In this document: piece after piece, positions 18,705 through 55,997 of the stretch
Numbering within the stretch: the first letter of the stretch is position 1
Layout: every line of letters begins with the position of its first letter
NCBI GenBank assembly: GCA_965242865.1
Contig: CBDETK010000013.1
Location: forward strand, 992,001 to 1,056,000
Direction of reading: 5' to 3'
Origin: Candidatus Latescibacterota bacterium
GTDB lineage: Bacteria > Latescibacterota > UBA2968 > UBA8231
DNA: 64,000 nucleotides
Notes under the pieces: model-generated
Told to the model about the DNA's origin: nothing
Databases searched by the model: none
The model's input: the letters and a program-made list of their open reading frames with translations, nothing else
Made by a program: the position numbers and the translations under genes

Positions 18705-18732
18705 AACGCGGGATTGGAATTGTAATCGGTAT

Positions 18733-19055: not shown

Positions 19056-19511
19056 TTAAGGGATGGCGTATTTGAAAACAATTTGAATCAAGACTAGCAC
19101 CACGGGCACTCCGATGCCTATCGCCTTGATCGCCATCCGCACTTCGCCCCTGAGTTCGGCCACATCCGCCTTGAGTTCGCTAACTTCCTCCTTCGTCGCC
19201 AAACCCTTGAGCGCCCCCTTGAGTTCGGCTACATCCGCCTTGAGTTCGCTAAACTCCTCCTTCGTCGCCAAACCCTTGAGCGCCCCCTTGAGTTCGGCCA
19301 CATCCGCCTTGAGTTCGCTAACCTCTTCCTTCGTCGCCAAACCCTTTAATTCCCCCTTGAGTTCGGCAAAGTCCTCCTTGGTCGCCAACCCCTTGAGTTC
19401 CCCCTTGAGTTCCCCCTTGAGTTCCCCCTTGAGTTCGCTAACCTCCTCCTTGGTCGCCAGATACTTATGAGTGCCTTCTAAGCCGGCGACCTTTTTCGTT
19501 ACTTCTGCCAT
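19056..19511 (-). CDS. Long LATKE-type coiled-coil paralog with expanded repeats
   Basis: Near-identical termini to 18733-18957; 5 LATKE motifs; 69-bp and 12-bp internal repeats. Confidence 0.85.
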   Translation of the reverse strand: MAEVTKKVAGLEGTHKYLATKEEVSELKGELKGELKGELKGLATKEDFAELKGELKGLATKEEVSELKADVAELKGALKGLATKEEFSELKADVAELKGALKGLATKEEVSELKADVAELRGEVRMAIKAIGIGVPVVLVLIQIVFKYAIP

Positions 19512-19569
19512 TGCGTTGCTCCTATCTAGTTGGTACGGGCAATATAGCACTATTTAACGCCGCGTCCAG

Positions 19570-32980: not shown

Positions 32981-33054
32981 GGAAAACCTCCTTTTATGAA
33001 TAAATGACTTGAAAGCATAGAATGTTCATCGACGCCGTCTTTTTTGCTACGAGG

Positions 33055-33094
33055 CGTCATTCCCGCAAACGCGGGAATCCAGTCTTGAATGACG
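33055..33094. repeat. REP/dRS3-like palindromic repeat
   Basis: CGTCATTCCCGC-AAAC-GCGGGAATCCAGTCTTGAATGACG; related copy at 52993-53061. Confidence 0.75.
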
Positions 33095-33122
33095 TAAGAT
33101 TGCTGCTATATATCCAATTCAT

Positions 33123-34436: not shown

Positions 34437-35076
34437 CAAGGCGTCTATCTGCTAGCCGCTCAAGGCGTTTCGCCTGAGTCAGAAGGGTTTGGCGCAACCC
34501 CAGCGAGACGTTCCTCTCGCTTATGAGCCGGGCCAAGCTGGCGATCGTACTGGCCCTTCTTGCTATTCTAACATCTGGATGTCGCTCCCTAGCGTAGATG
34601 TGCGCTGGTATTATCCTCGCTCGGTGCGATTTGGGTAACTCAACTAGTTCGGTCGGCGGTATATCTTCCTCGTTGAGAATCGCACCAATCGCAGATTCTT
34701 GCAGGAGCTTCTCAAATACGGTGTATTCCGCTTTGTCCATGAGAAGTTTGGCCTCTTTTTTCTCGTCAGTCGTCCGTGGCGAAATGTCAAAGAAGGGCCA
34801 AACTTCCACTTCTGCTACTTCTACCGGGTCAAGGACGAATTTACCCACCGCATCACTCCTTCTTCCCGTGAGATGGCGACCAATCCGCCCCCGGACCTTC
34901 TCAATGGTCTGCCCGACATAGATGGGCTCCCCCTCATAGTCGTAGAATGCGTAGATACCGCAAAAGGCATTGCCAATTTTGCGTCCTTGCTCGTCTTCCG
35001 TGTCGTAAAATTTCTTTATCTCTTCTTGAATGTCCCTGACATCTTGTGGGGACGATTGCTTGGTTCTTTGAGCCAT
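34417..35076 (-). CDS. GIY-YIG nuclease (partner of Dcm); last codons supplied by the IS
   Basis: GIYAFYD...IYVGQT...RIGRH; start overlaps the dcm stop. Confidence 0.85.
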   Translation of the reverse strand: MAQRTKQSSPQDVRDIQEEIKKFYDTEDEQGRKIGNAFCGIYAFYDYEGEPIYVGQTIEKVRGRIGRHLTGRRSDAVGKFVLDPVEVAEVEVWPFFDISPRTTDEKKEAKLLMDKAEYTVFEKLLQESAIGAILNEEDIPPTELVELPKSHRARIIPAHIYARERHPDVRIARRASTIASLARLISERNVSLGLRQTLLTQAKRLERLADRRLGNRTDS

Positions 35077-36197
35077 TATGCTTTTACCTCACTCAACTCA
35101 TCAACCACCGGATTGAGATAATGTCGGGCTATCCACTCGACAGCCGATACGCATACGGCGTCGCCAAAACCAAATAGAGCTCTGTTCAATGGTAAGTCTG
35201 GACGGAGCGTGAATTCATCGGCCCCCATTAGGCGGGCGCATTCCCGCGGCGTAAGCAGACGGACGGCATACGCCCCGTGGCCGCCGCGAAAAAGAATTTG
35301 TCGGCCGCTGCCACCCCGCGGCGTTCGCAAACATCCGGCGATACCATCGGTGCGTAGTTCGGCCATGGATCGCTTGTTCCGCACCCGGCGAAAGACCGTG
35401 CCATAAGAATACTTTTTGCCAGCGATCATTTTTTCGGCTATCGCCCGGTGCCGTTGGCTCATCTGGTTCAGCAGGTACTCGGCTCGTTCCTTGCTCCACC
35501 ATTCCTCAACCTCATCCGGCAAGTCTTCGAGCACATCTTCAAGCGTCTGGTCGTTGCCAGTAATTTCTGGCAGCTCCCGAATATGCCATGCCAGTTCGGG
35601 GTGGGTGGCCATAAAATGGGCGAGAGCCTTAGGCCGAGTTTGGCTCGCGATGAGTGCCGGTTCAAGCAGTGCAGGGCCTTTTCGTTTTCCTTGAACGCCC
35701 ACCACAAAGATCCTTGGCCGGCTTTGCGGAACAAACCACGCCGCATTGAGGATAAAGGCATCCACTTGGTAGCCTAGATCGTTCAGGGCCTGTAAGGCAC
35801 AGCGCAAGTCCTCGCCTTTGTGGGAGGTCAAAAAGCCGAGGACATTTTCCAAAAGCACTATCGCCGGCCGGCGCTCGTCCATTTTTTTCAAGACCTTCAC
35901 AAACCCCCAAAAGGCAGAAGACGCTTTGCCGTTTAGCCCCTGTCTGGCCCCGGCAAGCGAGAGATCATTGCAGGGAAAAGAGGCCGTAGCAAGAGTGACC
36001 GACGGCAGCCAAGCCCCTTCCACGTCGTGAATGTCTCCGACGACAAAATGCTCGTCGGCATCCGCGAAGTGGGCCTTGTACATCGCATGCTTTTCCTCGT
36101 CGATATCATTGGCCCAAGCTATATTCCATCCCGCGCGTTCAAGGCCCATTCTCATCAGACCGATACCGGCAAAAAACTCGGCAACCGTTTTTTCCAT
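35076..36197 (-). CDS. dcm: DNA (cytosine-5) methyltransferase
   Basis: FFAGIG, SFPCNDLS, ENV, PQSRPR, GDAV motifs. Confidence 0.93.
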   Translation of the reverse strand: MEKTVAEFFAGIGLMRMGLERAGWNIAWANDIDEEKHAMYKAHFADADEHFVVGDIHDVEGAWLPSVTLATASFPCNDLSLAGARQGLNGKASSAFWGFVKVLKKMDERRPAIVLLENVLGFLTSHKGEDLRCALQALNDLGYQVDAFILNAAWFVPQSRPRIFVVGVQGKRKGPALLEPALIASQTRPKALAHFMATHPELAWHIRELPEITGNDQTLEDVLEDLPDEVEEWWSKERAEYLLNQMSQRHRAIAEKMIAGKKYSYGTVFRRVRNKRSMAELRTDGIAGCLRTPRGGSGRQILFRGGHGAYAVRLLTPRECARLMGADEFTLRPDLPLNRALFGFGDAVCVSAVEWIARHYLNPVVDELSEVKA

Positions 36198-36247
36198 GGC
36201 GATTTCGCTAGCTCCTCTCCAATGGTCGCTTTCGCCTGAGTCGCCCG

Positions 36248-37876
36248 TCAATCCTCCACCACGTGCAATCGCTGGTTGGCGGCCACATCTTCGAGCACTT
36301 GCACGCCCCCGGCCGGCCAGTGAATTTCCAGCCGCTCAACGCGCTCTGCCGTGCCCAAGCCAAACACCGGGTCGCGCTGGCTGGTCGAGAGAAAGCCCGA
36401 CCCCGCCTTTACTTCCCGGACCTGCCCCTGTCCACCGGCCCATAAATACAGGCGAGCACCGATGCCGTCGCGGTTGCTGTGGCGGCCCTTTAGCGCGACC
36501 GCGAGATAGTGGCCCCCAGTGCCGTCGTTGCGCAGCAGGGCGAAGCGGCGGCCGTTGTTGACGAGGGCAATGTCCAAGTCGCCGTCTTGGTCGATGTCGC
36601 CAAAGGAGGAACCGCGCACCACGTACCAAGCGGCAAAACCCGGGCCGCTCTCAGCGGTCACTTCGCGGAAGACGCCCGCGCCCCGATTGCGAAAGAGCTG
36701 GGCCTGTTGGGCGTAGGTCACCAATTGGTCGTATTCCTCAATGTTGTCGTGGACATGGCCGTTGCCCACAAACAGGTCGAGCTGTCCGTCGTGGTCCGCG
36801 TCGAAAAACCCCGTGCCAAAACCGAGGTAGCTCAGGCTGAGATCGCCGAGGCCGGCCTTGAAGCTGATCTCGGAGTAAAACGAGCCGTCGTTGCGATACA
36901 GCCCGTTGTTTTCCAACTGGTAGTTGGTGACGAAGAGGTCGAGGTCGCTGTCTTGGTCTATGTCGCCGGCATCGACGCCCATGCCCGCTTGGCTGGCCCC
37001 GTCGGCGCTCAGCGCGGTCCCGGCCAGCAAGCCGGTCTCGGCAAAGGAGCCGTCGCCTTGGTTGACGTAGTGGAAATTGGGCGTCAGATCGTTGGCCACG
37101 TATAGGTCGGGGTCGCCGTCTCCGTCAAAGTCGCCCGCCACCGCGCCCAACCCATTGCCGGCGTGCTCAATACCCGCTTGGCGGCTCACCTCGGAAAAGA
37201 CGCCGTGGCCCTCATTGCGGTAGAGGATGTCCTCGGTAGGCGCAAAGACCCTCGGGTCGCAGTAGAAGCGCAAGCCCAAATCCTCGCGGCCGCACCAAGG
37301 CTGTTCGCCCAAGGCAAAGCGGACGTATTGCGCGGCAAAGAGGTCGAGATCGCCGTCGAGATCGTAGTCGAATGCAACCGCGCTGGTGGTCCATCCCGGG
37401 TGGCCGAGCCCGGCCGCGACCGTCGCATCCACATAGCCTCCCTCAACGCGCCGGTAGAGCTGATCCGGCCCCCACGCCGTCAGGTAGAGGTCGGGGCCGC
37501 CGTCGCCATCGTAGTCGGCCGCCGTAACCCCCATGCCGTAGGACGTGCCGGGCGCGCCGGCGGCACTGTCCAGCCGCGCAAAGGCGCGTCCATCGTTGCG
37601 AAAGAGCTGGTTGGAGGCCGTGCCCCGCCCCCGCTCCAAGTCCCCGCTGTTGACCAAGTACAAATCCCAATCGCTGTCCGCGTCGTAGTCGAGAAAGGCA
37701 CTGCCGGCGCCATTGGTCTCGGGCAGGTTCTTGGCGGGCGAGGCCCCGTTGTCGTGGACGAAGTCAATGCCCAATTCGCGGGCGACCTCCACGAAGTGGG
37801 GCTGCCCATAGCTGGTGGCCGCCAGCAGGAGCACGAGGAGCAGGCCCCCCCTGCTATCCCCTGAGCAGCGGCTCAA
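36248..37876 (-). CDS. CRTAC1 / ASPIC-UnbV family FG-GAP repeat protein
   Basis: Multiple DxDxDGDxDL repeats, SNRDGIGA...VFGLG C-terminal domain; start uncertain. Confidence 0.88.
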   Translation of the reverse strand: MSRCSGDSRGGLLLVLLLAATSYGQPHFVEVARELGIDFVHDNGASPAKNLPETNGAGSAFLDYDADSDWDLYLVNSGDLERGRGTASNQLFRNDGRAFARLDSAAGAPGTSYGMGVTAADYDGDGGPDLYLTAWGPDQLYRRVEGGYVDATVAAGLGHPGWTTSAVAFDYDLDGDLDLFAAQYVRFALGEQPWCGREDLGLRFYCDPRVFAPTEDILYRNEGHGVFSEVSRQAGIEHAGNGLGAVAGDFDGDGDPDLYVANDLTPNFHYVNQGDGSFAETGLLAGTALSADGASQAGMGVDAGDIDQDSDLDLFVTNYQLENNGLYRNDGSFYSEISFKAGLGDLSLSYLGFGTGFFDADHDGQLDLFVGNGHVHDNIEEYDQLVTYAQQAQLFRNRGAGVFREVTAESGPGFAAWYVVRGSSFGDIDQDGDLDIALVNNGRRFALLRNDGTGGHYLAVALKGRHSNRDGIGARLYLWAGGQGQVREVKAGSGFLSTSQRDPVFGLGTAERVERLEIHWPAGGVQVLEDVAANQRLHVVED

Positions 37877-38714
37877 TATGGTCTTTGGCGCGCAGCAAGC
37901 CTTCCTGTTGCAGCTCGGGCGTCTGCCAGAAGTAGTGGTCTTCGAGTTCCACCGAGAGCACGCCGTCGTACCCCACGTCCTCGAGCCGGCGCAGTACAAA
38001 GTTCCAATCCACTTCGCCCTCCCCGGGAATGGTATAGCGCCACCAACCCTCGCCACATACGTACGTCGAGCTATACGCCTCGCCCAAGTTGCCGGATTCG
38101 TAGAGCTTTTCCGGCATGATCTCGGTATCCTTGAGATGGACGTGTCGCACGCGGTCGCCAAACTCGTGCAAGAGCCGCTGATAGTCTATCTGCAAGCGCA
38201 CGAAGTGGGAGGGGTCGTAACAAAGACCCAGCCGCGGCGATGGGCAGGCCGCAAAAATCAAGCGCAGGCTCTCGGGCGAGCAGCCCAGATTGGGATAGTG
38301 GGGCCGACCGCCCGGCCACGGTTCAATGGCGATGTTGACGCCCACCTTCTCGGCGTGGGCCACGACTCGGGGATAGACCTTGGCAAAAATTGCAAAGGTC
38401 TCGGCCTTGGACATGCTGGGGTCGTCCGGGGCGAGCACCGTAAAGAGCGTGTGGCCGCCGTACCGGGCGATCGCGCTCAAGCTCTTCTTAATTTCGCTCA
38501 AGCCCTTGCGGCGCTGGGCCGCGTCGCGGGTGAGGACTTGGCCGCTGCCGTCGGCCGTGCCGAGGGCCAAGCCGAGCTGCTCGCAGGTGCGGGCGATCGG
38601 GCGAGTCAACGGCGGGGTATCGACCGCGCCAAAACCGTGCTCGGCCAACCACGCGGCATAGGCGTCAAAGCCGATTTGACGGGAGAATGGGGGCATGCGA
38701 GTGCCAATTTTCAT
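37854..38714 (-). CDS. Sugar phosphate isomerase/epimerase (TIM barrel)
   Basis: IAIEP, YDPSH, HVHLKD, GYDGVLSVELED. Confidence 0.88.
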   Translation of the reverse strand: MKIGTRMPPFSRQIGFDAYAAWLAEHGFGAVDTPPLTRPIARTCEQLGLALGTADGSGQVLTRDAAQRRKGLSEIKKSLSAIARYGGHTLFTVLAPDDPSMSKAETFAIFAKVYPRVVAHAEKVGVNIAIEPWPGGRPHYPNLGCSPESLRLIFAACPSPRLGLCYDPSHFVRLQIDYQRLLHEFGDRVRHVHLKDTEIMPEKLYESGNLGEAYSSTYVCGEGWWRYTIPGEGEVDWNFVLRRLEDVGYDGVLSVELEDHYFWQTPELQQEGLLRAKDHIEPLLRG

Positions 38715-38830
38715 GGAGTTCCCTTCTTTATGGGGTTGGAAATGACGGCCATCCACCAATGGGCGCGGACCGGCGCGTAGGTTGACGGCTCGTGGGCGCG
38801 TAGTAGCTCGCCCGGCGGGTGCTGCAAAAA

Positions 38831-39046
38831 TTAGTTCAGCACCTTTAGGAGAATGGTTATTTGCAAGCCGACAATGCCAAACAGGATGCCAATAATCCAC
38901 CGGTGGCTTGCGCGAAGTTCAGCGCGCAACTCGGCTACGGCTCGCTCAAGGGTGTCCAAGCGGCGGTCTAACTGCTCGGCAATCCCTTCTAACCGTCCAA
39001 TGCGGCGGTCGTGGTCTTGTGCTTGGGTTAGAGGGTGTTCGGTCAT
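38831..39046 (-). CDS. Small coiled-coil protein with C-terminal TM
   Basis: RIGRLEG...LERAVAELRAELR then WIIGILFGIV; GGAGG RBS. Confidence 0.75.
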   Translation of the reverse strand: MTEHPLTQAQDHDRRIGRLEGIAEQLDRRLDTLERAVAELRAELRASHRWIIGILFGIVGLQITILLKVLN

Positions 39047-39134
39047 CTGTTCCTCCGTTGGCTGTGGCTGGGATTTTCAAGGACCGGCTGAAATGTCGGG
39101 CTTTAGCGCGGCGGTTGCAATGATGCGCGCCGGA

Positions 39135-40247
39135 TTAAGCCGGGGCGCGGCCTTGCTTGGCTGGATCGACCCACTGGGTCACGATCAGCGAGACAAAAGC
39201 GAGGAGGGCGCCGCTGATAAAAATGACCTCGTAGCCAAAGAAAAGCCACGCGTACCCCCCGACTAGGGGCGCGGCCACGGCCGCCACGTGGTTCATGGTC
39301 ACCCCCATGGACAGGGTGGGTTTGAGTTCGTCGGGGGGCGCGATTTTGTGGGCGTAGGTCGTGAGCGCGATCCCGCCGAAGAAGATGAGGTTGTCGAGGC
39401 AATAGAGCGCGTACAGACTCGGCCGGTGCTCCACGAACGCATAGCCCAAAAAGACCAAGACCAACACGCTGTAACTGAGCGTGAGCATCCGCCGCTCGCC
39501 AAAGCGATCGACCAATCGGCCCATCCACGCAGCCGTCAAGGTAATGAGCGTTTGGTTGATCAACACCAAGACCATAGTCGTCTCCACCGGCATCCCGTGT
39601 ACTTTCACCAAGGCAAAAATGGCAAAGGTGATGAACATCTGCTTGCGCAGGCCCTGGAGGAAATTCAGGGCGTAGTAGAGTGCATAACGCCGCTTGAGCA
39701 CCCAGCGCTTCTCGCCGGCCGGCGCGTCTTGGTTGTCGGCCCAAAACAGGGCCAAGCCCCCGGCGGCCGTACACGCCCCGGCCAAGACGAAAACCCCTTC
39801 GTAGCGCAAAAACTCCAGCCCCAGCATGCACCCGCCAATGGCCGCTAGCCATGCCAAGCTGCTGATGCTGCGCAATTGCCCCAGCCAGCGGCCCTTGTCT
39901 GCGGTCGGGCCGTAGGTCAGGCCCATGCTCTGCTCGAGCGGGAGCCAGCAGTGAAAGCCCAAGCTCCACACCAGCGAGAACGAGGCCAGCATAAAGACCG
40001 AGGACACCTCCGCGTACGCGGCCAGCCCGACGCCCATCACCACCAGCGCAATGGCCGCGACTTTTGGCGGGGTGCAGCGGATAATCAGCACTAAGAAGAA
40101 CGCGTTGAGAAAACCAGGGACTTCGCGCAGGGCCTCGACGTAGCCCAATTCGTGCGGCTCAATGCCTAGCCGCTCCACGACGAAGTTGTTGAACAGGGTC
40201 AGTTGCACCCCGAAGAACACCCCCGTCCCGGCCACGGCCACGGCCAA
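39135..40247 (-). CDS. MFS transporter
   Basis: Multiple TM, GRLVDRFGER motif; true start probably upstream. Confidence 0.85.
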   Translation of the reverse strand: MAVAVAGTGVFFGVQLTLFNNFVVERLGIEPHELGYVEALREVPGFLNAFFLVLIIRCTPPKVAAIALVVMGVGLAAYAEVSSVFMLASFSLVWSLGFHCWLPLEQSMGLTYGPTADKGRWLGQLRSISSLAWLAAIGGCMLGLEFLRYEGVFVLAGACTAAGGLALFWADNQDAPAGEKRWVLKRRYALYYALNFLQGLRKQMFITFAIFALVKVHGMPVETTMVLVLINQTLITLTAAWMGRLVDRFGERRMLTLSYSVLVLVFLGYAFVEHRPSLYALYCLDNLIFFGGIALTTYAHKIAPPDELKPTLSMGVTMNHVAAVAAPLVGGYAWLFFGYEVIFISGALLAFVSLIVTQWVDPAKQGRAPA

Positions 40248-40404
40248 GAGCGCGAAGTTTTTATTCCATTCGGCAAAAGGATTGGTGATGATCGCCCCCT
40301 TGTTGAGGTGAATTCAAGTGTGCTTGTGCCTTCCCTTGACGCATCGCCAGGCAGCCGTTAAGCTACCGGCCCCAACCCACGCAACGGAGAAGGAGATTGG
40401 TACC

Positions 40405-41148
40405 ATGGCCGACGAGCGCGTCTTTATTGGCGACCTGACCCGCCGGGAATTCCGCGAGCGCATTCAAGCCGGCACGATCCAAGCCGCGATTGTGCCCACC
40501 GCCGCCACTGAACAGCACAACGAACACCTGCAGATGATCCACGACACCTTCCACGCCAGCTACATGGCCGAGCACGCGGCCAAAAAGCTCCGGCCCCACG
40601 TGGTGGTCGCTACGCCGGTGGGCATCGGCGTTTCCGAGCACTGGATGGAGCACATCGGCACCTTGACCGTGCGGCCGGAAATTTTCTGCGAATACGTCTT
40701 CGATGTCTGCCATTCGCTGGCGCGGGCCGGCATTGACAACATCTTGGTGCTCAACGGCCACGGCGGCAACGTCAAACCCATGATGCGCCGCCTCGACGAA
40801 TACCGAGAAAAACTCGGCGTCAACCTCCGCTTCCAGTCCTATTGGGACGTGTATGACCCCGACTTGGTGCAGCAATACATGGAGCGGGGCCGCCTGCCCG
40901 GGCACGCCGACGAGTTCGAGACCTCGACCATGCTTTACCTCGCGCCCGAGCGCGTGCAGCCCGAGGCTATTGACAACCCGGCCGCGGCCTTGGGCACCCG
41001 CGCCAAGGGCGAGGCCCTCGTGGGACCGGCCGTGGACGGGGTCGCCGCGCTGTTGCAGCAAATGATCGCCGGCCAAGCAATCGACCTGCCGCCGGTGACC
41101 TTCTATCCCGAGGGCAAGCGCAACCTCGTCACCGGCGAGCCGGTTTGA
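40405..41148 (+). CDS. Creatininase family protein
   Basis: EQHNEHL...D, NGHGGN, GHADEFETS. Confidence 0.9.
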   Translation: MADERVFIGDLTRREFRERIQAGTIQAAIVPTAATEQHNEHLQMIHDTFHASYMAEHAAKKLRPHVVVATPVGIGVSEHWMEHIGTLTVRPEIFCEYVFDVCHSLARAGIDNILVLNGHGGNVKPMMRRLDEYREKLGVNLRFQSYWDVYDPDLVQQYMERGRLPGHADEFETSTMLYLAPERVQPEAIDNPAAALGTRAKGEALVGPAVDGVAALLQQMIAGQAIDLPPVTFYPEGKRNLVTGEPV

Positions 41149-42178
41149 GCACGACGCCGAGGGCCTCGGCCGGCGACTCCACGAGCACATCGACAGCCGC
41201 GGCAATGTCCTCCAGCGCAAACTCGTGGGTATAAAGCGGCTCGACGCAGAGCTTTCCGGCCGCCATGGCGCGCAGGCACTCGGCTAGGTTGCGCTGAGTC
41301 GGCCACTCGACCAAGACCTCGGGATACGCGGGGCCGCGCTCGTATTCGGGGTCGTGATAGCCGGGGCCGGTGCGCGCTGCACTCCGCACATCCACGTTGC
41401 CCAGCGCGGCCCCAAAGCCGTGCGCGACCCGCGCTCCGCCCACGAGGACGATGCGCCCCAAGCGATGCGTATCCGGCGCTTGCTTTAGGCTCTGGTACAT
41501 GGCGGCAAACGCAGCGCTGGCCTCGCCGCCAAAGGCCACGACGCCGAAATCCATGCCGTAGCCTCGGGTGAACGCCCCGGCCCGCTCGACCACGTCCTGC
41601 GCGGCCGGATCGACGACGTCCTCTACGCCCACCTGCCGGGCGATGCTGCGCCGACGCGCCCAGCGATCGACCCCCAAGACGTGGCAGCCGCTCAACTGGG
41701 CAAACTGGGCCGTGAACTGACCGACCAACCCCAAGCCTACGACGATCCCGTTTTCACCGTACAACGGGGCGGTGCGCCGCACCGCGTGCAATCCGGTGGC
41801 TGCCAAATGCACGGACGCGGCCTCGGCAAAGCCAACGCCGGCGGGAATGGCCGCGCACAAATTCTGCGGCACACAGGCCCAATCGGCGTGCAGGGCGTAT
41901 CCGCCCCCCATGCAGGCGATGCCCTGCCCCACCGCGAATTGCTCTACGCCCGCGCCGACCTCCTCGACGACGCCGGCGTTGCTGTAGCCAAAAGGACGCG
42001 GGGGCCGGTCGGGTTGGGGGTTTTCCCGCATGGCCCCCACCCGCCCTAGCTCGCTCCCCGGGCTGATCAACGACGCTTCCACCCGAACCTTTACCTCGCC
42101 GGGGCCGAGGGCGGGCATGGCTTCCTCTAGACAGACCCCTCGGCCTCGGCCGTCAATAGCGGCGACCTTCCGCTGCAT
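41129..42178 (-). CDS. Zinc-binding (MDR) dehydrogenase
   Basis: SLISPGSE, GYSNAG, VGLGLVG. Confidence 0.88.
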   Translation of the reverse strand: MQRKVAAIDGRGRGVCLEEAMPALGPGEVKVRVEASLISPGSELGRVGAMRENPQPDRPPRPFGYSNAGVVEEVGAGVEQFAVGQGIACMGGGYALHADWACVPQNLCAAIPAGVGFAEAASVHLAATGLHAVRRTAPLYGENGIVVGLGLVGQFTAQFAQLSGCHVLGVDRWARRRSIARQVGVEDVVDPAAQDVVERAGAFTRGYGMDFGVVAFGGEASAAFAAMYQSLKQAPDTHRLGRIVLVGGARVAHGFGAALGNVDVRSAARTGPGYHDPEYERGPAYPEVLVEWPTQRNLAECLRAMAAGKLCVEPLYTHEFALEDIAAAVDVLVESPAEALGVVLKPARR

Positions 42179-42273
42179 AAGCACCTCCCTGTTGTGCTGG
42201 TTGCGCCCCTACGGGCTGCTATATTACTTATATAATATACTTTAGGTCTATTGCACTATCGGGTCGAGGTCCT

Positions 42274-43041
42274 GTGAACGTCATCATCGCGGCACTGTTG
42301 GGAAGCATCCTCTTGGTTTGGGGCGGGTTTTGGATCCTGCTCCGCATTGCGGACCCCTTTGAGCGCAAGCACGTGTTGATCCTCGCCGCGTACACCACCG
42401 TCGTCGTCGGCTGTGTCACGGGCTTGGTGCTGTTTATCAATCACGAGCGGCAAAAGGAGCACCGCTCTCAGCTAGAGGGCCAAATGGAGGACTTCTCCGC
42501 TCGCCTCTCCGAGCTGAGCACCCGGCTGATTGGCCAGCTAGAAGAAAAAGCCAATCTGACCGCCTCTGAATTTGAGATCCGCACCCTGCTGCAAAACGAA
42601 AAGGACCACCACAAGCGCACCCGCAACCAACTCGCCAACCAAATCGATCGCAACAACGCGCTGCAAAACAGAATGGACGCCGAGCGCAAGGAGCGGCTGC
42701 GCTACCAAGCCGACACCGACCGCCAGCTCAAAGAACGCTTCGAGCAAGAGGACGCGCGCTACCAAACCCTCGCCGACACCCAAGCGCGTTCCTCGGCTAA
42801 CGTGCAGGCGCAGCTTGGTCAGTTCGACCGGGAGTTGACCCGCCTGCAAGAGCAAACCGCGGCCTTGCAGCGCAATCAGCAAGCGATTTTAGACAAAATC
42901 GCCGCGGCCCGCGAGACCCAAACGCTTTCGGCCCAAACCCTCGATGCCCTCGCCCGCAGCCTGAGCGCGCTGTCCAACGACTTCCACCAGACCATGGCGC
43001 AAGTCGATAGCCTATACCGTAGAACATCCCCAACGCCTTAA
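42274..43041 (+). CDS. Membrane-anchored (2 TM) coiled-coil protein
   Basis: Two N-terminal TM helices followed by a long heptad region. Confidence 0.75.
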   Translation: MNVIIAALLGSILLVWGGFWILLRIADPFERKHVLILAAYTTVVVGCVTGLVLFINHERQKEHRSQLEGQMEDFSARLSELSTRLIGQLEEKANLTASEFEIRTLLQNEKDHHKRTRNQLANQIDRNNALQNRMDAERKERLRYQADTDRQLKERFEQEDARYQTLADTQARSSANVQAQLGQFDRELTRLQEQTAALQRNQQAILDKIAAARETQTLSAQTLDALARSLSALSNDFHQTMAQVDSLYRRTSPTP

Positions 43042-43050
43042 GGAGCCGAT

Positions 43051-43875
43051 ATGAAACGCACCCTCATCCCTTGCATCGCCCTAGTGCTCGCCGCCTGCAC
43101 CGATAAGGAGCAAGAGAGGCTCCTGCTCCAATTGCAAAGCGACATGGGCCGGGCCAACGCCGCCATTGACTCGCTGACGTACTCGCTCGACGACTCCAAC
43201 CGCTTGCTCGACGACATGCGGGCGCAGGTTGACAGCACCCAACAGGTGAACGACAAGCTCCTCGAAAACGTGCAAAAGCTCAACAAGGAACTGCGGCACT
43301 GGAGTAAACTGGCCACCGAATACAAGCAGAGCAATGCGCGGTTGAAGGTCGAAATTGAGCAGCTAAGGGAGGAAAAGCAAGGGGACCGCTACACCATTTC
43401 CCAACTGCGCTCCGAGACCGACCGCCTCAACGGCGAGCTACTGGAAACCCACAGCAGCATCCGCCGCCAGAGCGATCACATTCGGCGCTTAGAGCAGGAG
43501 TTGGCCCAGACTAAGGCCAAGCTAGACGCGGCTGAAGCCCAAATGGCCGTGCAAAACGCAGTGTTCCTCTACGCGGCCAACGAGCCCCAGCTCATAGAGC
43601 AGGGCTATCTCAGAACGCACCGCCCCTTTGGCAACGGGTTCCGCAAGCAATACGAATTGGTTAAAAAGATCCGCCGCGACAGCCCGGGCGCTCAAGTCGC
43701 GCCCATCGGCCAAACGATCGCCCTCGCTGGCGAGGTCGAGGCCCTCGTCGATTACTACGGCAAGCTCAGAAAAGGGGATGACTACGAAATGACGCGCGGC
43801 GACGCCGGGGTGCAGGTCACGTTCCTCAACGAGTTGGCCAGTGGCACGGGCGTCTTGGCGATCCTCAAGGAATGA
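43051..43875 (+). CDS. Coiled-coil lipoprotein with C-terminal globular domain
   Basis: Lipobox LAAC, about 150-aa coiled coil, AAGGAG RBS. Confidence 0.75.
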   Translation: MKRTLIPCIALVLAACTDKEQERLLLQLQSDMGRANAAIDSLTYSLDDSNRLLDDMRAQVDSTQQVNDKLLENVQKLNKELRHWSKLATEYKQSNARLKVEIEQLREEKQGDRYTISQLRSETDRLNGELLETHSSIRRQSDHIRRLEQELAQTKAKLDAAEAQMAVQNAVFLYAANEPQLIEQGYLRTHRPFGNGFRKQYELVKKIRRDSPGAQVAPIGQTIALAGEVEALVDYYGKLRKGDDYEMTRGDAGVQVTFLNELASGTGVLAILKE

Positions 43876-43884
43876 GCTCGGCCC

Positions 43885-44304
43885 TCACCACGTGTGGACA
43901 TAGACGGCCGAGCGCACCTTTTCCCCGGCTTGGTTGGTCGACAGCAGGGAGTCGGCAAACGTCGCGTGTTTGGCCAGCCTCTCGCGGCTCCCCCCTTTGA
44001 GAAATAAATGCAAATTGGCTTCGGGTTCGGCGGCGAGGCGGCGCACCATCCGGCGAAACTCCCACTCGCTCAAGGGGCTGTCGATGGTGTAGCCATCGCT
44101 CGATAGCCCCACGGCCGCGCTCGTGTACAGCACGACCCGATCGCCCGGTTGGGGGTCGTGGCGATGCACCCGCCAGACCGGTTGCGTGGCATTGAGAATC
44201 ATAATGCCCAAGCTCAACATCAGCATCATAATCCCCAAAAAGAGTTCCTTGCTAATATCGTGCTCTTCGAGCTCGGCGTCTTGGCGCTTGAGATAGCGGC
44301 TCAC
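43885..44304 (-). CDS. ExbD/MotB-like single-TM protein
   Basis: One N-terminal TM plus small periplasmic domain, directly downstream of an ExbB-like gene. Confidence 0.55.
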   Translation of the reverse strand: MSRYLKRQDAELEEHDISKELFLGIMMLMLSLGIMILNATQPVWRVHRHDPQPGDRVVLYTSAAVGLSSDGYTIDSPLSEWEFRRMVRRLAAEPEANLHLFLKGGSRERLAKHATFADSLLSTNQAGEKVRSAVYVHTW

Positions 44305-44318
44305 AACCCTCTATTCCT

Positions 44319-45104
44319 CTATTCCTCGCTCGTCCTCGCTCGGACCCAAGCGTCCTCCTGCCGGGCGAGCCGCTGGACCAGGTAGTCGGCGTGCTTGCGC
44401 AGCGGCAAGTACGCCAAGAGGCCGACGAGCGTGGTCTTAAAGGCCAAAACCAAGCCCTCGGCCATGGCGCTGAGGGCCTTAAAGGTCTGGGTCGCCTCGT
44501 CGATCTGGCTCAATTCCTGCGCGGTCAGCAGGATGCCGCAGACCGTGCCCAAGTAGCCGTACAGGGGGATTCTCGCTAGATCGCGGCGGACGTGGGTTAG
44601 CGGGGTGCCGAGAATGCCCACGAGTTCGTCCACCAGCTCCTCGTCCCGGCTCTTGCGGTCGCTGTAGCTGGCAAGCTGACGCTGCCACTCTGACAACTGC
44701 TCCATTCGCTTGCGGCCCAAGGTATTAGGGCTGGTGTCGCCGTGATTCCCCCAAGCCCTTTCCTCGCGGCGAAGGTGCAAACTAATGTGGGCCAAGCTCA
44801 ACAGATGGCCGCCCGCCGCCCACGCGATCAGCGCGTATGAGAGGCGGCCAATCCAAGCAAAAACACTCGCTGGCTGCGGGTTGAAGAACAGGTAATAAGC
44901 GGCCAACGCCCCGACGATACCCCCGGTCAGCAAACCGATGCCGCTGGCGAGGAACCGCAGGCGGGGCACGGTCAGGGAGTACTTTTCGTCGTGCTGGCGC
45001 ATGCGCCGGGCCCGGCGCATCTGCAACCAACTCGCGCTGACGCCGCTGGCCAGCACCAACAGAACGCTGCTGCCTAGGATTAACTCGTCGTTCAAGCGGT
45101 CCAT
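44319..45104 (-). CDS. MotA/TolQ/ExbB proton channel family protein
   Basis: PLYGYLGTVCGI and GLVLAFKTTLVGL motifs. Confidence 0.8.
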   Translation of the reverse strand: MDRLNDELILGSSVLLVLASGVSASWLQMRRARRMRQHDEKYSLTVPRLRFLASGIGLLTGGIVGALAAYYLFFNPQPASVFAWIGRLSYALIAWAAGGHLLSLAHISLHLRREERAWGNHGDTSPNTLGRKRMEQLSEWQRQLASYSDRKSRDEELVDELVGILGTPLTHVRRDLARIPLYGYLGTVCGILLTAQELSQIDEATQTFKALSAMAEGLVLAFKTTLVGLLAYLPLRKHADYLVQRLARQEDAWVRARTSEE

Positions 45105-46294
45105 CCCTTCGCCCGGAAGAGCTTCCACCACTGCCGACTGACCACCCCTAAGTAGCACAGCAGGCCGGTCGCAATCCCCCACAGTTCCCACGGCACGCTG
45201 CTACCCCTGAGGACGCTCCGAGCAGCCGAGCGAGCCGCCCCCGCCCCGGTCGCACGCCCCTCGCCTTGGGTCGCGCCGCGGCCGGCCGGGGGCGCGTAAT
45301 CTCGCCGGCGGTCTGCGCCCCCGCGCACGGTGCGGCCTACGGCGCGCTGCGGCACCACGTGGGTCGCGCCCTTGAGGGCCTGCTTTTTGGGGAAAACCAA
45401 TTCGCGTTGCGCGGCCGGCAGGGATTCGGTCCAAGCGAGCAGTTTTTTGGCTGCGTCAATGCTTTCGACTTCGGCCAGTTTGTCCGCTTTGCCCAAAGAA
45501 AAAGCCAATCGCCCGCGAATGAACCCCCGATAGAGCACGTCCGAGGTCGGGCTGCGGCGGGCTTGGAGCTTGCGCGCCAATTCGTCGCGTTGCTTTTGCA
45601 GGCGCACCAACCGGCTGACGACCAGATGGGTTTCCATATTCTGCTGCTGCGCGGCCCCGCCCACGCCGGTGAGCGGCCGCCGGCGCGCCGCACGCGCCAA
45701 GTGCCCGGCGTCAAAGCGCGCCTCTAATTCGACCTCGCCAAACAGGGTCGTTCCCCAGATGACTTCGGCCCCGGGAATGTCGGGCAAGCTGTGGTTGTAA
45801 AAACGCGGCTCGGCCGGCCGGCCGGCCACCCGCCAGCGGCCATCGCCGGTGGCCAGCACCCGGCGCAAGCGGCCGCGGCCGTCTTGTAGGTACAGACCGG
45901 CCATAAAGCCGCTTTCGACTCGGTCCGTGTCCCAGCAATGGGCGCGTAGGACATTGGACTTGTGTAGGTACACCGCGGGAATTTCGACTCGGGTCGGGGT
46001 CAGGCGCGTTTCCCCGATCCGCTGCCCATTGAGGAACAGCTCGGCTTCGTCGTCGGCCCAAAACATCAGCACCAGCTTGGAGTTGGCCGGCAAGATGCGG
46101 GGGGTTCCCCGCCGCTTTGCCAATTCGCGCAGCTCGTCCCCCCCGTAGAGGCGAACCAGGGTGTCGATGCTGGCGGATACTTGGTTGTACTGGCGTCTGA
46201 GTGCCACCGCGTCATCGGCCGCCGCGGCCGCCGCCCAGCCGACCCCGCACACCGCCCACGCCAACCAACGCCCCCATCGCGCATAGCCGCTCAT
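45092..46294 (-). CDS. Exported protein with beta-sandwich domain and C-terminal TM
   Basis: Signal peptide, ADDEAELFLNG motif, C-terminal hydrophobic helix followed by basic residues. Confidence 0.7.
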   Translation of the reverse strand: MSGYARWGRWLAWAVCGVGWAAAAAADDAVALRRQYNQVSASIDTLVRLYGGDELRELAKRRGTPRILPANSKLVLMFWADDEAELFLNGQRIGETRLTPTRVEIPAVYLHKSNVLRAHCWDTDRVESGFMAGLYLQDGRGRLRRVLATGDGRWRVAGRPAEPRFYNHSLPDIPGAEVIWGTTLFGEVELEARFDAGHLARAARRRPLTGVGGAAQQQNMETHLVVSRLVRLQKQRDELARKLQARRSPTSDVLYRGFIRGRLAFSLGKADKLAEVESIDAAKKLLAWTESLPAAQRELVFPKKQALKGATHVVPQRAVGRTVRGGADRRRDYAPPAGRGATQGEGRATGAGAARSAARSVLRGSSVPWELWGIATGLLCYLGVVSRQWWKLFRAKGWTA

Positions 46295-47277
46295 AAAAAA
46301 CCTTCCGTGAAACTGCTCGCTTTAGCGGGCAGAGGGATAGGAGTTGCTTTTTGTGACGGGCGCGAAAGCGTCCCTGAACAAAAGCAAATATAGCCCTTAC
46401 GTAATGGATTATCGATCACTATACTTAAGGGTATGGAAACGATACGCACCCTTTCTTGTAAGCTCGCCGTTCCCCATCCAATCAAAGATCGGATTGAGGC
46501 TACGCTTGAAGCGTTTTCCCAAGCCTGCGACTTCGTTGCGGATTGGGGCAACGAGCACAAGAAGCATCGTCGCTGCTGAGGATGCGCCCGCACCGCCTTC
46601 GGATGCGGATGTCAAGGCCACCCTCGGCGTTGATTTGGGTCTCCGTCACCTCGCTACTGATTCCGCAGGACACCAGTTTCAGGGAACAGACCTTGCTGAC
46701 TATCGTTCGCACCGAGCCGATGTTCGGGCTTGGTTGCAAGCGAAGGCACATCGGGGCACCAAGGCAACGCGCAAAGCCTGCCGCCGTGCCCTTAAACGGC
46801 TTTCGGGTCGGGAGCGTCGTCACCAGAAACAGATCAACCACGAGATTAGCAAACACTTGGTTTCCTTCGCATTGAAGCAAGGGGTGGCCATTGTCTTTGA
46901 ACAGCTCAAGGGCATCCGCGACCGCTGCCGGGTTCGCAAAGCGCACCGGCGGAGGTTGAACTCGTGGGCGTTTTACCAGTTGCAGCAGTTTGTTGAATAC
47001 AAAGCCAAGCAGGCCGGGGTCCGCATGGTCTATATCGACCCGCGCTATACCTCTCAAACCTGCTCGAACTGTCTGCATATCGGGATACGACGCCAAGATG
47101 ATTTCGCCTGCAAAGACTGTGGGCACCGTTCCCACGCCGATCTCAATGCGGCACGGAACATTGCCCGCTGGGGCCTCGCTGTAATCCGAGGCGAATACTC
47201 CCTGCTCTCCTGCCCGCTCCCAAGCGGCGGAAGGGTGGGAGGGTAAAGCGGACGGCGTTAGCTGTCAGTGCGATTAC
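46295..47277 (+). mobile_element. IS200/IS605-family tnpB-only element, copy 2, internally deleted
   Basis: Near-identical to copy 1; region equivalent to 33399-33736 replaced by GCTGCT, which frameshifts tnpB. Confidence 0.92.
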
Positions 47278-48044
47278 ATATTGGACTTGGATTGCCCCCC
47301 ATCGACATTGATGCAGGCGCCCGTCACCCATTGCGCTCGGTCGGACGCCAAGAAGGCCACCACATCCGCGACCTCCTCTGGGGAGCCAAAGCGGCCAAAG
47401 GGCAGGTTGGCGTCGATAAAGGCTTGGATTTGCGCTGGATTTTCCTTCATCCGCCGCTCCCAGCTCCCTCCGGGAAAGAGAATGGAACCCGGGGCCACGG
47501 TGTTGACGCGGATGTTCTTTTGCGCTGCTTCAATCGCCAAATTGGCCCCCAAGCTGATCAGCGCGGCCTTGGCGGCATTGTACGCGATAGGCCCTCCGGT
47601 TTCGCGGCCAAAAATCGAGGCGATGTGGACGATGCTGCCGCCCCCGCGCGCTTCGAGCAAGGGCATGGCCGCCCGGCTCACCCGCACGGCCGAGAGAAAG
47701 CTCAAGTTGATGCTGTCGTTCCACTCGGCATCGTCGATCTCGACAAAGGGGGTCCACTTGGCTCCGCCGACGTTGTTTACGACAATGTCGAGGCCGCCAA
47801 AGCGCTGGTTGGCCGCGGCCACCACGGCGATCGCGCCCTCCGGCGTGGTCACATCGTGCGCGGTGGCCTCCACTTCGGCACCGCGGGCAGTTAAGTCGGC
47901 GGCCGCTTCGGCCAGCGCATCCGCGCCGCGGGCACAGATGCAAAGCCGCGCTCCCTCGGCGGCCAAGGCCGCGGCAATGCGCTTGCCAATGCCGCGGCTA
48001 GCCCCGGTAACTAGGGCAATTTTGTCTTTGAGTCCCAGATCCAA
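47274..48044 (-). CDS. SDR family oxidoreductase
   Basis: TGASRGIG, NNVG, YNAAK; stop codon supplied by the IS end. Confidence 0.92.
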   Translation of the reverse strand: MDLGLKDKIALVTGASRGIGKRIAAALAAEGARLCICARGADALAEAAADLTARGAEVEATAHDVTTPEGAIAVVAAANQRFGGLDIVVNNVGGAKWTPFVEIDDAEWNDSINLSFLSAVRVSRAAMPLLEARGGGSIVHIASIFGRETGGPIAYNAAKAALISLGANLAIEAAQKNIRVNTVAPGSILFPGGSWERRMKENPAQIQAFIDANLPFGRFGSPEEVADVVAFLASDRAQWVTGACINVDGGQSKSNM

Positions 48045-48045
48045 A

Positions 48046-49032
48046 CTACACTCCTTTCTCAAGGCCCGGCGTCAGCGCGCCGGGATTGGTCGCGAACAGT
48101 GCGATCAAGTAAGCCATGCACAACGCCAACAACACCAAGCCCTTCCAGCGGCTCAACGAATAGCCGTAGCGCATCAACCCGAGCATCGCCACGACGATTG
48201 CCAGCATCCACGGGAACATGAACTGGACCACGTCGGCCGGGACCACCAGCGGGTTGGCCAAGGCCGACGCGCCGGCGATCCAGCAGATGTTGAGGATGTC
48301 GGCCCCGAGGATATTGCCCACGGCCAAAGCCCCTTGGCCTTTGCCAGCCGCGACAATGCAGGTCGCGATCTCGGGGATCGAAGTGCCCAAGGCCACGACC
48401 ACCAAGCCGATGACCACGTCCGGCAGCCCCAACGCCTTGGCCACCACCGGGGTCGCCTCGACGATAAAGTGGCTGCTGACGACCACGCCGGCCAAGCCGC
48501 CGCCAAACAGCAACGCTACCCGCCCGAGGCTGCGCCGGGCGGCCTCCTCCTCGTCCAGCGCGGGGCGCGGCCGCTGCTTCTGCTCCCAGAACGAATATAT
48601 AAGGTATAGGACAAAAAGCCCGACCAACGCGCCGCCCTCCACCCGAGCCAGCGTCCCGTCGGCGGCCATGTACCAAGCCACTAGATCGACGGTGATGAGA
48701 AAAATCGCGGCCGAGCGCAGCACGACGCGGTCGATGGCAATGGCGGCGGGGGCAAAAAGCGCGGCCATGGGCAGGGCCAAGCCGTCGTCGTAAATGACCG
48801 ATCCCACGGCATTGCCCAGCGCCACTTCGGGCGAGTCGCTGAGGGCCGCAGTCACCGAGACCGCCAACTCGGGCGCGGTGGTGCCAATGCCGACGATGAC
48901 GATGCCGATCAAGATCGGGGGGGCGCGGAGATAGCGCGCAATATCAATGGCACCTTCGACCAGATAGTCGGCGCATTTGGCCAGCAGCGCGAAGGATAGG
49001 ACCATCAGGCCCGCGGCCTCCCAGATCCCCAT
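48046..49032 (-). CDS. Calcium/sodium antiporter (YrbG-like)
   Basis: GTTAPEL and GTSIPE alpha repeats, GNAVGS / GNILGA. Confidence 0.92.
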   Translation of the reverse strand: MGIWEAAGLMVLSFALLAKCADYLVEGAIDIARYLRAPPILIGIVIVGIGTTAPELAVSVTAALSDSPEVALGNAVGSVIYDDGLALPMAALFAPAAIAIDRVVLRSAAIFLITVDLVAWYMAADGTLARVEGGALVGLFVLYLIYSFWEQKQRPRPALDEEEAARRSLGRVALLFGGGLAGVVVSSHFIVEATPVVAKALGLPDVVIGLVVVALGTSIPEIATCIVAAGKGQGALAVGNILGADILNICWIAGASALANPLVVPADVVQFMFPWMLAIVVAMLGLMRYGYSLSRWKGLVLLALCMAYLIALFATNPGALTPGLEKGV

Positions 49033-55049: not shown

Positions 55050-55997
55050 ATGTCAAAATCCCTCAAAACCCTGCTCGGGTTCGCCCTCTTGGGCTTCGTC
55101 GGTGTTTGGATGGGCTGCTCGTCCGACACCTCGCCCGTAGCCCCCCAAGCTGCCGGCAAAACCCACCTGACCGCGCAAGACCCAGTTGTTGACCTATCAG
55201 AGCCAGACGATCCAACAACGACCCCCGTTGCGTTTGCCGACTCCAATCTAAAAGCTGCGGTGGGAGAGGCACTCATGGCGGCGTTGAATATCCCGTCTGT
55301 GCCTATCCCGATCACCGTGGCGCAAATGGATTCCCTGACCACGCTCAACGCGCGTGATAGAGGCATTCAGAGCTTGACCGGCCTCGATTACGCTACGAAT
55401 TTGGACACGCTGGATCTGGGCGGCAACCAGATTACGGATGTGAGTCTGCTGGGCTACCTGACCAAATTGGAATGGCTGTCTCTGAGCGGCAACAGCATTA
55501 CGGATCTGAGTCCGCTGACCAGTCTGACCAAGTTGGAAGTCCTGAATCTGAACTTCAACACGATTTCGGATCTGAGTCCGCTGACCAGTCTGACCAAGTT
55601 GGAATCCCTGCATCTGTACGCCAACTCGATTTCGGATGTGAGTCCATTGGCCAATCTGACCAACTTGAAACGCCTGACTGTAACTGGTAACCCTCTTGAG
55701 GGGAAGGTTACTCCGTTGGCCAGTCTGACCAAATTGACATGGCTGAAGTTGAACGACACCGGGATTAGGGATAGTGGTCTGAGTACGTTGGCGGCCAGTC
55801 TGACCAAATTGACATTCCTAGACCTGAGCTCCAACACGATTTCAGATCTGAGTCCGTTGACTTGTCTGCCCAACTTGGAACGGCTGGGGATGAGAAAGGT
55901 CAACGACGGCTCTGGTCCTGGTAATAAGTATGTGGCTACTACTAGTAACATACATATCAGATACTTGATAGACAGAGGCGTCACAATAAATTGGTAA
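55050..55997 (+). CDS. Internalin-like leucine-rich repeat lipoprotein
   Basis: Lipobox WMGC; 22-aa LTKLExLxLxxNxISDLSPL repeats (66-bp period). Confidence 0.92.
   Translation: MSKSLKTLLGFALLGFVGVWMGCSSDTSPVAPQAAGKTHLTAQDPVVDLSEPDDPTTTPVAFADSNLKAAVGEALMAALNIPSVPIPITVAQMDSLTTLNARDRGIQSLTGLDYATNLDTLDLGGNQITDVSLLGYLTKLEWLSLSGNSITDLSPLTSLTKLEVLNLNFNTISDLSPLTSLTKLESLHLYANSISDVSPLANLTNLKRLTVTGNPLEGKVTPLASLTKLTWLKLNDTGIRDSGLSTLAASLTKLTFLDLSSNTISDLSPLTCLPNLERLGMRKVNDGSGPGNKYVATTSNIHIRYLIDRGVTINW

Follow-up and report, generated by a model that had tools for sequence, protein, structure and literature searches.

The TnpB nucleases of the IS200/IS605 transposons are ancestors of the Cas12 enzymes and have been studied intensely, and target choice in this family is usually reduced to a lagging-strand motif of 4-5 nt and nothing more. 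In this study, we analyzed a TnpB-only element of this family in a 64,000-nucleotide stretch of DNA from a Candidatus Latescibacterota bacterium (assembly GCA_965242865.1, contig CBDETK010000013.1, positions 992,001 to 1,056,000; hereafter the window), together with its relatives in the same genus. The window holds two copies, and the second of them (copy 2) lies exactly on the start codon of one gene where it overlapped the stop codon of the gene before it. In this clade, docking on start codons and on translationally coupled junctions is genuine and recurs. We found no description of start-codon docking by IS200/IS605 elements in searches of full texts, which did not extend to supplements or subscription journals.

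The closest described systems are IS608 and ISDra2, the 'peel and paste' elements of the Y1 transposase TnpA that also carry TnpB. Like them, the present element inserts 3' of a fixed tetranucleotide without duplicating it, has subterminal hairpins at both ends and, as far as the available portions of the published accounts go, a left-end linker of similar size (~19 nt); its TnpB is of the Cas12f-like TNB type. According to the portions available of two IS608 accounts, TTAC and AAAG form a cleavage-site/guide pair that is used at the left end of that element (PMC3597680, PMC5027513), and it is the right end that finishes in TTAC here, with AAAG 5' of the hairpin. Unlike IS608 and ISDra2, the present element has no TnpA, its target YCAT is the complement of ATGR, about half of its copies abut start codons, and no lagging-strand bias was seen in the two genomes tallied. 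It also has an extra covarying helix, in which the left-end linker is paired with bases on the 3' side of the hairpin and which the same portions of the IS608 accounts do not describe (PMC3597680, PMC5027513). A second comparison is with the IStrons, in which an IS605-type element is joined to a group I intron and whose insertions, in the available portions of the sources, are harmless to host genes (PMC4227781, bioRxiv 10.1101/2023.11.20.567912). The likeness lies in an IS200/IS605 relative with seemingly harmless insertions; unlike in IStrons, there is no intron here, and any mitigation would come from site choice and translation signals rather than from splicing. Terminator-like sequences have been reported genome-wide upstream of IS200/IS605 elements, in the part of that report available (PMC13548323). 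The left-end stem-loops of IS200, as partially available accounts have them, act as a terminator and sequester a ribosome-binding site (RBS), so that a left-end structure interfering with transcription or translation has a precedent; those of IS200 act on its own tnpA, whereas here the outward face and a host gene are concerned. Finally, the REP2 repeats of Neisseria and the IR repeats of Borrelia are placed immediately upstream of open reading frames (ORFs), as our element is, and supply a promoter and an RBS, in the available portion of the source (PMC3184786). In contrast to the present element, REP2 is not of the IS605 type and brings its own ATG, whereas the ATG here is that of the host.

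The insertion site of copy 2 is organized as follows (positions are those of the window).

46291-46294, plus strand: target tetranucleotide TCAT; on the minus strand ATGA, in which the start of a 400-codon ORF overlaps the former TGA stop of a short-chain dehydrogenase (SDR) gene
46295-47277, plus strand: copy 2, a non-autonomous IS200/IS605-type TnpB element of 983 bp, internally deleted relative to copy 1 at 46571/46578
46295-46313, plus strand: left-end linker, with an A-run (46295-46300) and CCTTCC (46301-46306), the complement of which is the Shine-Dalgarno (SD)-like GGAAGG
46303-46306, plus strand: 5' strand of helix P1, within the left-end linker
46314-46331, plus strand: left-end subterminal hairpin TGCTCGC / TTTA / GCGGGCA (helix 2), with covariation
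46340-46343, plus strand: GGAG, the 3' strand of helix P1, pairing with the SD-complement in the linker
46433-47246, plus strand: tnpB pseudogene of copy 2, its N-terminal 48 codons and its C-terminal part being in different frames across the deletion
47245-47266, plus strand: AAAG (47245-47248), then the right-end hairpin GACGGC / GTTA / GCTGTC (47251-47266)
47274-47277, plus strand: right-end terminal TTAC, which on the minus strand gives G-TAA, the new SDR stop
47274-48062, minus strand: SDR gene, with ATG in place of ATA as the last codon and a TAA stop composed of element bases
45092-46294, minus strand: 400-codon ORF (ORF400) with a signal-like N-terminus and no Pfam family, its native ATG kept

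The last bases of copy 2 are GCGATTAC and its left boundary lies directly after TCAT. No terminal bases are common to the left flank and the right end of the element, which makes both boundaries unambiguous. Joining the flanks without 46295-47277 gives ...TCC AAT ATA TGA GCG GCT ATG... on the minus strand, where the occupied site reads ..TCC AAT ATG TAA, then the element, then ATG AGC.... The coding end of the SDR protein (Pfam adh_short_C2, 3.7e-57) with the element in place is AAT ATG TAA, and ORF400, which is kept in 37 of 41 related genomes, retains its own ATG at 46294-46292, preceded by GGAAGGTTTTTT (in copy 1 the equivalent bases are GGAGGTTTTTT). Eleven of 19 orthologous loci in the genus show the uninterrupted ATATGA junction (tccaatat followed directly by ATGA); one of the rest has a 5-nt duplication, six have a different insert of ~80 nt at the identical point, and the last, from a distant relative, has a separate stop and start, ATC TGA gccgcc ATG. 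There is no target-site duplication and the empty sites are contiguous. Copy 2 inserted precisely, into an ATGA overlap that predates it. The initial annotation had read the site in this way, with an SDR gene that first ended in an ATGA overlap, a right end whose outward G-TAA turns nnA-TGA into nnG-TAA, and a left end that places GGAAGG-TTTTTT (GGAGG-TTTTTT in copy 1) at suitable spacing directly 5' of the ATG; as an observation on the sequence, it is confirmed in every statement.

The occupied site was also found, with an element of full length that has 338 additional letters at 46571/46578, on a contig of another public sequencing run that is ~1.7% diverged, and an insertion common to strains ~1.7% apart speaks for tolerance. 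Contigs from two further runs span both junctions, and no empty-site joint was seen in the contigs of runs X1, X4, X6 and X9. In run X6, loose ends at window positions 46291 and 47278 belong to another copy, the flanks of which, if paired, rebuild AGGAGA-N9-ATGATG, a textbook RBS and start. Among the orthologues, the 5-nt tandem duplication (ATATGATATGAGC, L008) at the stop/start overlap parts the stop from the start, and the insert of the six relatives (L006, L009, L015-L018; ~75-85 nt, CTAATCCGCAGATGAACGCAG...) begins at the exact base of copy 2 and replaces the first 9 codons of ORF400. As a relic of the element this insert was rejected, its local alignment score being 22 against 19 +/- 2 for shuffled sequences (maximum 27).

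Relatives were collected by a DNA search (subfamily 1, 73-77% identity), a protein search (subfamily 2, ~40% TnpB identity, and subfamily 3, ~33%), a genome-wide pattern scan and a left-end covariance model, the last of which placed 73 left ends in 21 of the 31 genomes of the genus. In what follows, L-numbers are loci and G-numbers are genus genomes, G000 (13 contigs, 6.0 Mb) being that of the window. The union of the searches comprises 76 left-end junctions, 75 of them independent. The census leaves out L111 (left end deleted), L027 and L140 (left end truncated), the contig-edge matches G014:C65 and G014:C132, and L109, which occupies the same site as L088; flanks are common to two genomes for L088/L109 and L087/L116, and otherwise nearly every insertion was found in one genome. 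The target is TCAT at 45 junctions, CCAT at 24 and a variant at 7. At 38 of the 76 junctions the adjoining ATG begins an ORF of 100 codons or more, compared with 26.7% of the 76,417 YCAT sites in G000 (P=1.3e-5), so the copies do not lie at random TCAT sites. By Pfam N-terminal domains or orthologues, 31 junctions are true gene starts, the criterion being a first Pfam domain that starts at residue 1, close to it or behind a signal peptide. The others comprise 4 likely starts and 4 unverified long ORFs, both classes assigned from ORF length and a reading of the N-terminus with L105, L108 and L112 outside the Pfam testing, one intragenic site (L079, in a DNA methylase, profile positions 162-217) and 36 'other' sites. 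The genes at true-start junctions encode HisG, HisD, an aminotransferase, an amidohydrolase, two MR/MLE enzymes, FtsH, an E2 acyltransferase, a response regulator, HicA, VapB- and HigA-like proteins and solute-binding proteins, among others. Given that true starts make up ~4% of the YCAT sites in G000 and 31-39 of the 75 junctions (P<1e-20), the enrichment at start codons is not in doubt, and what the initial annotation had as one clean example turns out to be a recurring class of site, with 31 true starts and 5 ATGA overlaps in the genus.

Empty sites in G000 were sought for 23 insertions. All seven spanning matches, each for a further start-codon insertion, are contiguous at the predicted junction; 13 queries had no match and 3 had matches that did not span. 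For 30 sites both flanks are available, and these fall into 17 start codons, one intragenic site and 12 intergenic sites that lie mostly at or near gene ends or starts. A start follows the right ends of L024, L028 and L086 after 2, 18 or 20 nt, L096 interrupts an ATG of the opposite strand, and the other non-start sites include one 1 nt past a stop, one on TAATG and one within the last 3 codons of a gene, where T-AG from the left end forms a stop. Subfamily 3 targets TTAT with the same left-end layout, and its left ends, which are only partly delimited, are 10-130 nt from start codons in the 6 readable loci. A GTDB-wide scan for the exact right-end pattern returned 27 stretches, 10 with element context and 17 chance matches; the ten are all titled Latescibacterota or 'Gemmatimonadetes' metagenome-assembled genomes (MAGs), and as a test the scan did not reach beyond the genus.

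The 17 start sites with both flanks include five ATGA overlaps (copy 2, L023, L046, L085 and L092) and four further junctions, namely TGATG between hisG and hisD in G012, TAA/ATG, an 8-nt overlap and a 4-nt gap. Besides the SDR gene, the upstream ORFs at start-site junctions are real genes in 7 of 8 cases tested. The initial annotation had raised the possibility that ATGA overlaps are enriched, which was not borne out: they account for 5 of 14 TCAT start sites against 25.5% of the ATGA-start genes in G000 (P=0.27), so that among start codons they occur at their base rate and are not favoured. In G012 the sole hisD lies behind an element inserted in the hisG-hisD junction (L090), and in G041 the sole hisG found carries an element on its start codon (L039); the presence of single-copy genes behind the element suggests that such insertions are tolerated. 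The his operon has been hit twice, at the hisG start in one genome and at the hisG-hisD junction in the other. Likewise, one MR/MLE gene start has been used in two genomes, L041 (G003) lying on the ATG and L028 (G013) 20 nt upstream in the other orientation. Five derivatives keep both ends, all at start codons: L132 (108 nt), L138 and L139 (~240-250 nt), and L040 and L041 (582-610 nt), which are miniature or internally deleted forms; in L132 a native GGGAGG ribosome-binding site is visible just past the right end. At six other loci (L134, L151, L136, L137, L149 and L153) the left end leads into another type of conserved cargo (..GGTTGAGCACCCAACCTTCAG..), for which no Rfam match was found at any of the six, nor an ORF of at least 100 aa in the first ~800 nt of the L134 cargo.

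Judged by its sequence features, the element is a decayed, non-autonomous member of the IS200/IS605 family, TnpB-only and IS1341-like. Each of the 13 subfamily-1 left ends is directly preceded by TCAT, GATTAC terminates all 14 subfamily-1 right ends, and the right-end hairpin with GGTAAAGC on its 5' side is kept in the same 14. Terminal inverted repeats are absent, and the left and right subterminal hairpins differ. In all 14 copies AAAG precedes the right-end hairpin and TTAC stands at the tip, which by its letters equals the IS608 pair; GAGAC/GAAAC is a putative left-end guide for TCAT. Intact relatives encode a TnpB of 381 aa with a Cas12f1-like TNB domain (PF07282, 85.7 bits, cut-off 26.3) and a score of 28.8 bits for OrfB_IS605 (PF01385), just under the cut-off of 30.5. 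Neither window copy contains tnpA, and G000 has merely one partial TnpA match (PF01797, 30.5 bits) elsewhere in the genome; full-length Y1 TnpA genes adjoin left ends of the same architecture in G013, G020, G021, G045, G002 and G042, and it is on these grounds that the element is filed as non-autonomous. A listing of hairpins was uninformative on autonomous IS605 ends in L098-L103. Both G000 copies are on the inferred leading-strand template, and in a rough hand tally for G045 and G010, with the origin placed at dnaA and the terminus opposite it, 8 of 19 left ends obey the lagging-template rule. On contig C13 of G000 the minimum of the cumulative GC skew coincides with dnaA and the maximum is ~0.1 Mb from the two copies, these landmarks lying at about 0.92 Mb and 3.66-3.69 Mb. 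Neither a group I intron nor any other Rfam family was matched in window 32000-49000 (at E<=1) or in six related loci (at E<=0.01), which sets the element apart from the IStrons, and the ATG is already present in the empty sites, unlike in the case of REP2.

Whether the ends are built for such sites is a different question, and here the evidence points mainly to other causes. The outward G-TAA is TTAC, the probable right-end cleavage site, read backwards. The initial annotation asked whether the outward GTAA is conserved across the family, and this holds for 14 of 14 subfamily-1 right ends but not for the sister subfamily 2, the right end of which (GGTTGAC, that is, TTGAC) makes no stop, the next one lying a few codons into the element. 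Stop restoration is therefore confined to subfamily 1. At the other end, the 16S rRNA of G000 ends in ..CACCTCCTTTCT, a canonical anti-SD, and the spacer between GGAGG and ATG in this genome peaks at 5-7 nt, so the GGAGG-TTTTTT-ATG of copy 1 is optimally spaced. Read by its letters, the left end closely mimics a local ribosome-binding site; at window position 32979 (minus strand) a native gene start, GGAGGTTTTCCATG, is almost equal to its outward face, GGAGGTTTTTTATG. The SD-like motif is situated in the ~19-nt linker between the putative cleavage site and the left-end hairpin, and its complement (CTCC, TCGC, TCCC or CCGT) pairs with GGAG, GCGA, GGGA or ACGG ~9-12 nt past the hairpin. In this helix P1 (columns 13-16 with 52-55 of alignment A2), all 4 pairs show compensatory changes and 98.4% of the cells are paired, a covariation reached by 0 of 500 shuffles of 16 related sequences, from which the structure itself was proposed; in helix 2, 6 of 7 pairs change on both sides, with 96.4% paired. 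The sequence of P1 varies by lineage, and in subfamily 2 it takes the forms CTCCCTT/AAGGGAG, CAGC/GCTG, GTCTC/GAGAC, CTCTTTA/TAAAGAG, CGCCTTT/AAAGGTG, TCGGCG/CGCCGA and GGCGCGA/TCGCGCC. In other lineages the SD-like motif reads GCGAG, GGGAG, GCTG, CGCCGA or TCGCGCC. GGAG, GAGG or AGGA is present 3-14 nt 5' of the ATG in 22 of 39 start-class left ends and in 19 of 37 others (Fisher 0.82). Left ends without an SD-like motif are found on the starts of PhyH, GlgP-like, sulfatase and E2 genes. In the predicted outward RNA the purine run (in G000 the U-run as well) would be paired into helix P1. Nearly all lineages have the A-rich beginning of the left end. The alignment indicates that GGAGG is not conserved, an outcome that the initial annotation had named as refuting its idea, and that the SD-like motif is explained by structural constraint, as a strand of the covarying helix. 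The annotation's broader interpretation is thus partly supported: the class of site recurs, but selection of the ends for restoring translation signals is not supported, as TTAC is probably the cleavage site and the SD motif is unlinked to the class of site.

The explanation that we favour, in which we place about as much belief as doubt, combines a motif that is the complement of ATGR with the loss of disruptive insertions and ends that are fortuitously benign. It starts from what was observed directly, namely the anatomy, the target, the empty sites, the recurrence at start codons and the covarying helix. A Y1 TnpA acting in trans presumably inserted the element immediately 3' of TCAT, the sister subfamily having CCAT instead. 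These targets are the reverse complements of ATGA and ATGG, so that wherever a purine comes after a start codon, the opposite strand offers a potential target. Inserted at such a start, the element would separate position -1 from the A of the ATG, face away from the gene and leave the reading frames unbroken. Intragenic insertions would be lost and surviving copies would accumulate at gene boundaries, of which start codons may be the largest class that carries the motif, with ATGA overlaps a natural share of them. The neighbours of copy 2 remain formally intact for two reasons: the terminal TTAC reads G-TAA outward, and the linker, composed of an A-run and the pyrimidine strand of a structural helix, presents outward an RBS-like purine run and U-rich spacer. 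The end features would serve transposition, and their benefit to the host genes would be a by-product that makes the sites tolerable. That the element moved in trans, that intragenic insertions were selectively lost and that the flanking genes continue to be expressed is what we infer. The TTGAC end of the sister subfamily, the lineage-varying P1, the lack of association between SD motif and start sites, the base rate of ATGA overlaps and the layout of subfamily 3 all argue for a by-product rather than a design, and the 'restoration' of stop and SD is best read as a by-product of the cleavage site and the structural helix rather than as a demonstrated adaptation. Several points weigh against this explanation. 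In G000, 7,574 of the 76,417 YCAT points lie outside ORFs (heuristic calls, 4,851 ORFs), and by a crude estimate ~1,577 of these (21%) are 5'-most ATGR starts. The observed start share of 31-39 of 75 (41-52%) exceeds 0.21 with P=5e-5 to 3e-9 and an assumed 0.30 with P=0.024 to 6e-5, so that motif and simple survivorship under-predict the bias and leave a roughly 2- to 2.5-fold excess unexplained. None of the six left ends beside a Y1 TnpA (L099, L101, L123, L144, L116 (1091) and L172) is at a start codon, against 39 of the other 70, which the explanation does not predict. Removal of the native RBS is expected to be harmful unless the left end compensates, as a design hypothesis says. Finally, the copies are related, the genomes are MAG-derived, the gene calls are heuristic, and the 36 'other' sites come without right-end information.

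In a reading that we regard as doubtful, the clade is specialized in docking on start codons and overlapping junctions, its target being the complement of ATGR and its ends replacing the displaced RBS and, in one subfamily, the stop, so that it lives at low cost in operons, even ahead of single-copy biosynthetic genes, and is shielded from deletion by the neighbouring gene. That it evolved as an adaptive safe harbour, the idea of the initial annotation in a wider form, with minimal cost to the host, we consider unlikely; the outward face of the left end would then be a replacement RBS (an A/U-rich spacer with or without the purine run), the subfamily-1 right end would supply the stop, and copies would be hard to delete without killing the neighbour. 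Such a history would fit the start-codon excess over the survivor null and the intact ORFs behind the element in the single-copy hisD and hisG and in the genes of the E2 acyltransferase, the response regulator and one of two FtsH proteins, as well as the 9 of 17 start sites at operon-internal junctions (from a 4-nt gap to an 8-nt overlap), the GGAGG spacing of copy 1 at the genome optimum, the A-rich start of nearly every left end, and the deleted or miniature L040, L041 and L132 (108 nt) that keep both ends at start codons. It is weakened by an SD-like motif that is missing from 17 of 39 start-class copies, is not associated with the class of site, covaries as a helix strand and is predicted to be buried in the outward RNA, by stop restoration in one subfamily alone, by ATGA overlaps that are not enriched among start sites, and by the A-rich linker of the subfamily that targets TTAT. 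A bias at the insertion step itself, independent of harm, seems less probable still, although it would account for the sites near starts in both orientations (the right ends of L024, L028 and L086 2-20 nt upstream, and the ATG split by L096) and for a single intragenic site in 30 even though nearly every insertion is confined to one genome. TnpA would then prefer single-stranded DNA (ssDNA) exposed at translation-initiation regions or gene boundaries, for example at stalled forks or in weakly structured DNA; stalled forks indeed attract IS608, and insertions of it have been found in the rrn genes, which are highly transcribed, as the available portion of the source has it (PMC5027513). However, the predicted probability that YCAT is unpaired in ssDNA is nearly equal at start (0.62), intergenic (0.585) and genic (0.578) sites, class means too close for accessibility to be kept as the cause of the start bias, and neither an extended motif in the flanks nor a bias in replication orientation is visible, the 8 of 19 left ends in G045 and G010 and the leading-strand template of both G000 copies included. 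The idea that copy 2 simply happened upon an ATGA overlap, with nothing general behind it, is very improbable: G000 by itself, with two copies, a remnant and a copy 1 that is not at a gene start, would agree with it, but the 31-39 of 75 independent junctions at starts and the 5 ATGA overlaps in the genus (P<1e-20 against the ~4% true-start rate) already contradict it. Our favoured explanation, the adaptive reading and the insertion bias are not mutually exclusive.

The other features of the element in the window are the following.

33119-34436, plus strand: copy 1, with TCAT (33119-33122) and a 1314-bp element (33123-34436) that ends in GATTAC; intergenic
33260-34405, plus strand: tnpB of copy 1, with an in-frame TAG at 33833-33835
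46387-46415, minus strand: promoter-like match TCGATA-17-TATATT (9/12), candidate only, the sole one facing outward toward the left end

Copies 1 and 2 are 98-99% identical in two blocks, between which copy 2 is deleted for ~330 nt. Both tnpB genes are dead, that of copy 1 through the in-frame TAG and that of copy 2 through the deletion and frame change. The outward ATG at copy 1 opens just 21 codons, and the site is not a gene start. Apart from these two copies, G000 contains one right-end remnant of 118 nt (93% identity) and nothing more; in G000:C13:4545083-4545264 it is accompanied by a 64-nt internal piece of the element. The scan for outward promoters gave one match where 0.4 were expected, which is not significant, and no terminator was found in a scan of 46150-47450. 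At 33239-33262 and 46412-46435, the promoter-like TTACGT-17-TATACT ends 7 nt 5' of the tnpB ATG, and the tnpB mRNA may be leaderless or nearly so. Elsewhere in the window there are tandem coding repeats of 69-nt units and of 66-nt LRR-like units (18683-19558 and 55395-55868).

With a target motif that is the complement of the start codon, and with about half of the copies exactly on starts, including overlaps inside operons and the single-copy hisG and hisD, this clade offers a natural data set on what allows a gene to survive a transposon at its most sensitive base pair. If the left end truly substitutes for the ribosome-binding site, the family would have a second, independent route of harm mitigation beside the IStrons, and a specialization in docking, if true, would be the counterpart of the IStron strategy at the level of translation; such an end would also lend itself directly to scarless, polarity-free insertion. 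If the left end does not substitute for it, the start-codon bias itself still needs a mechanism.

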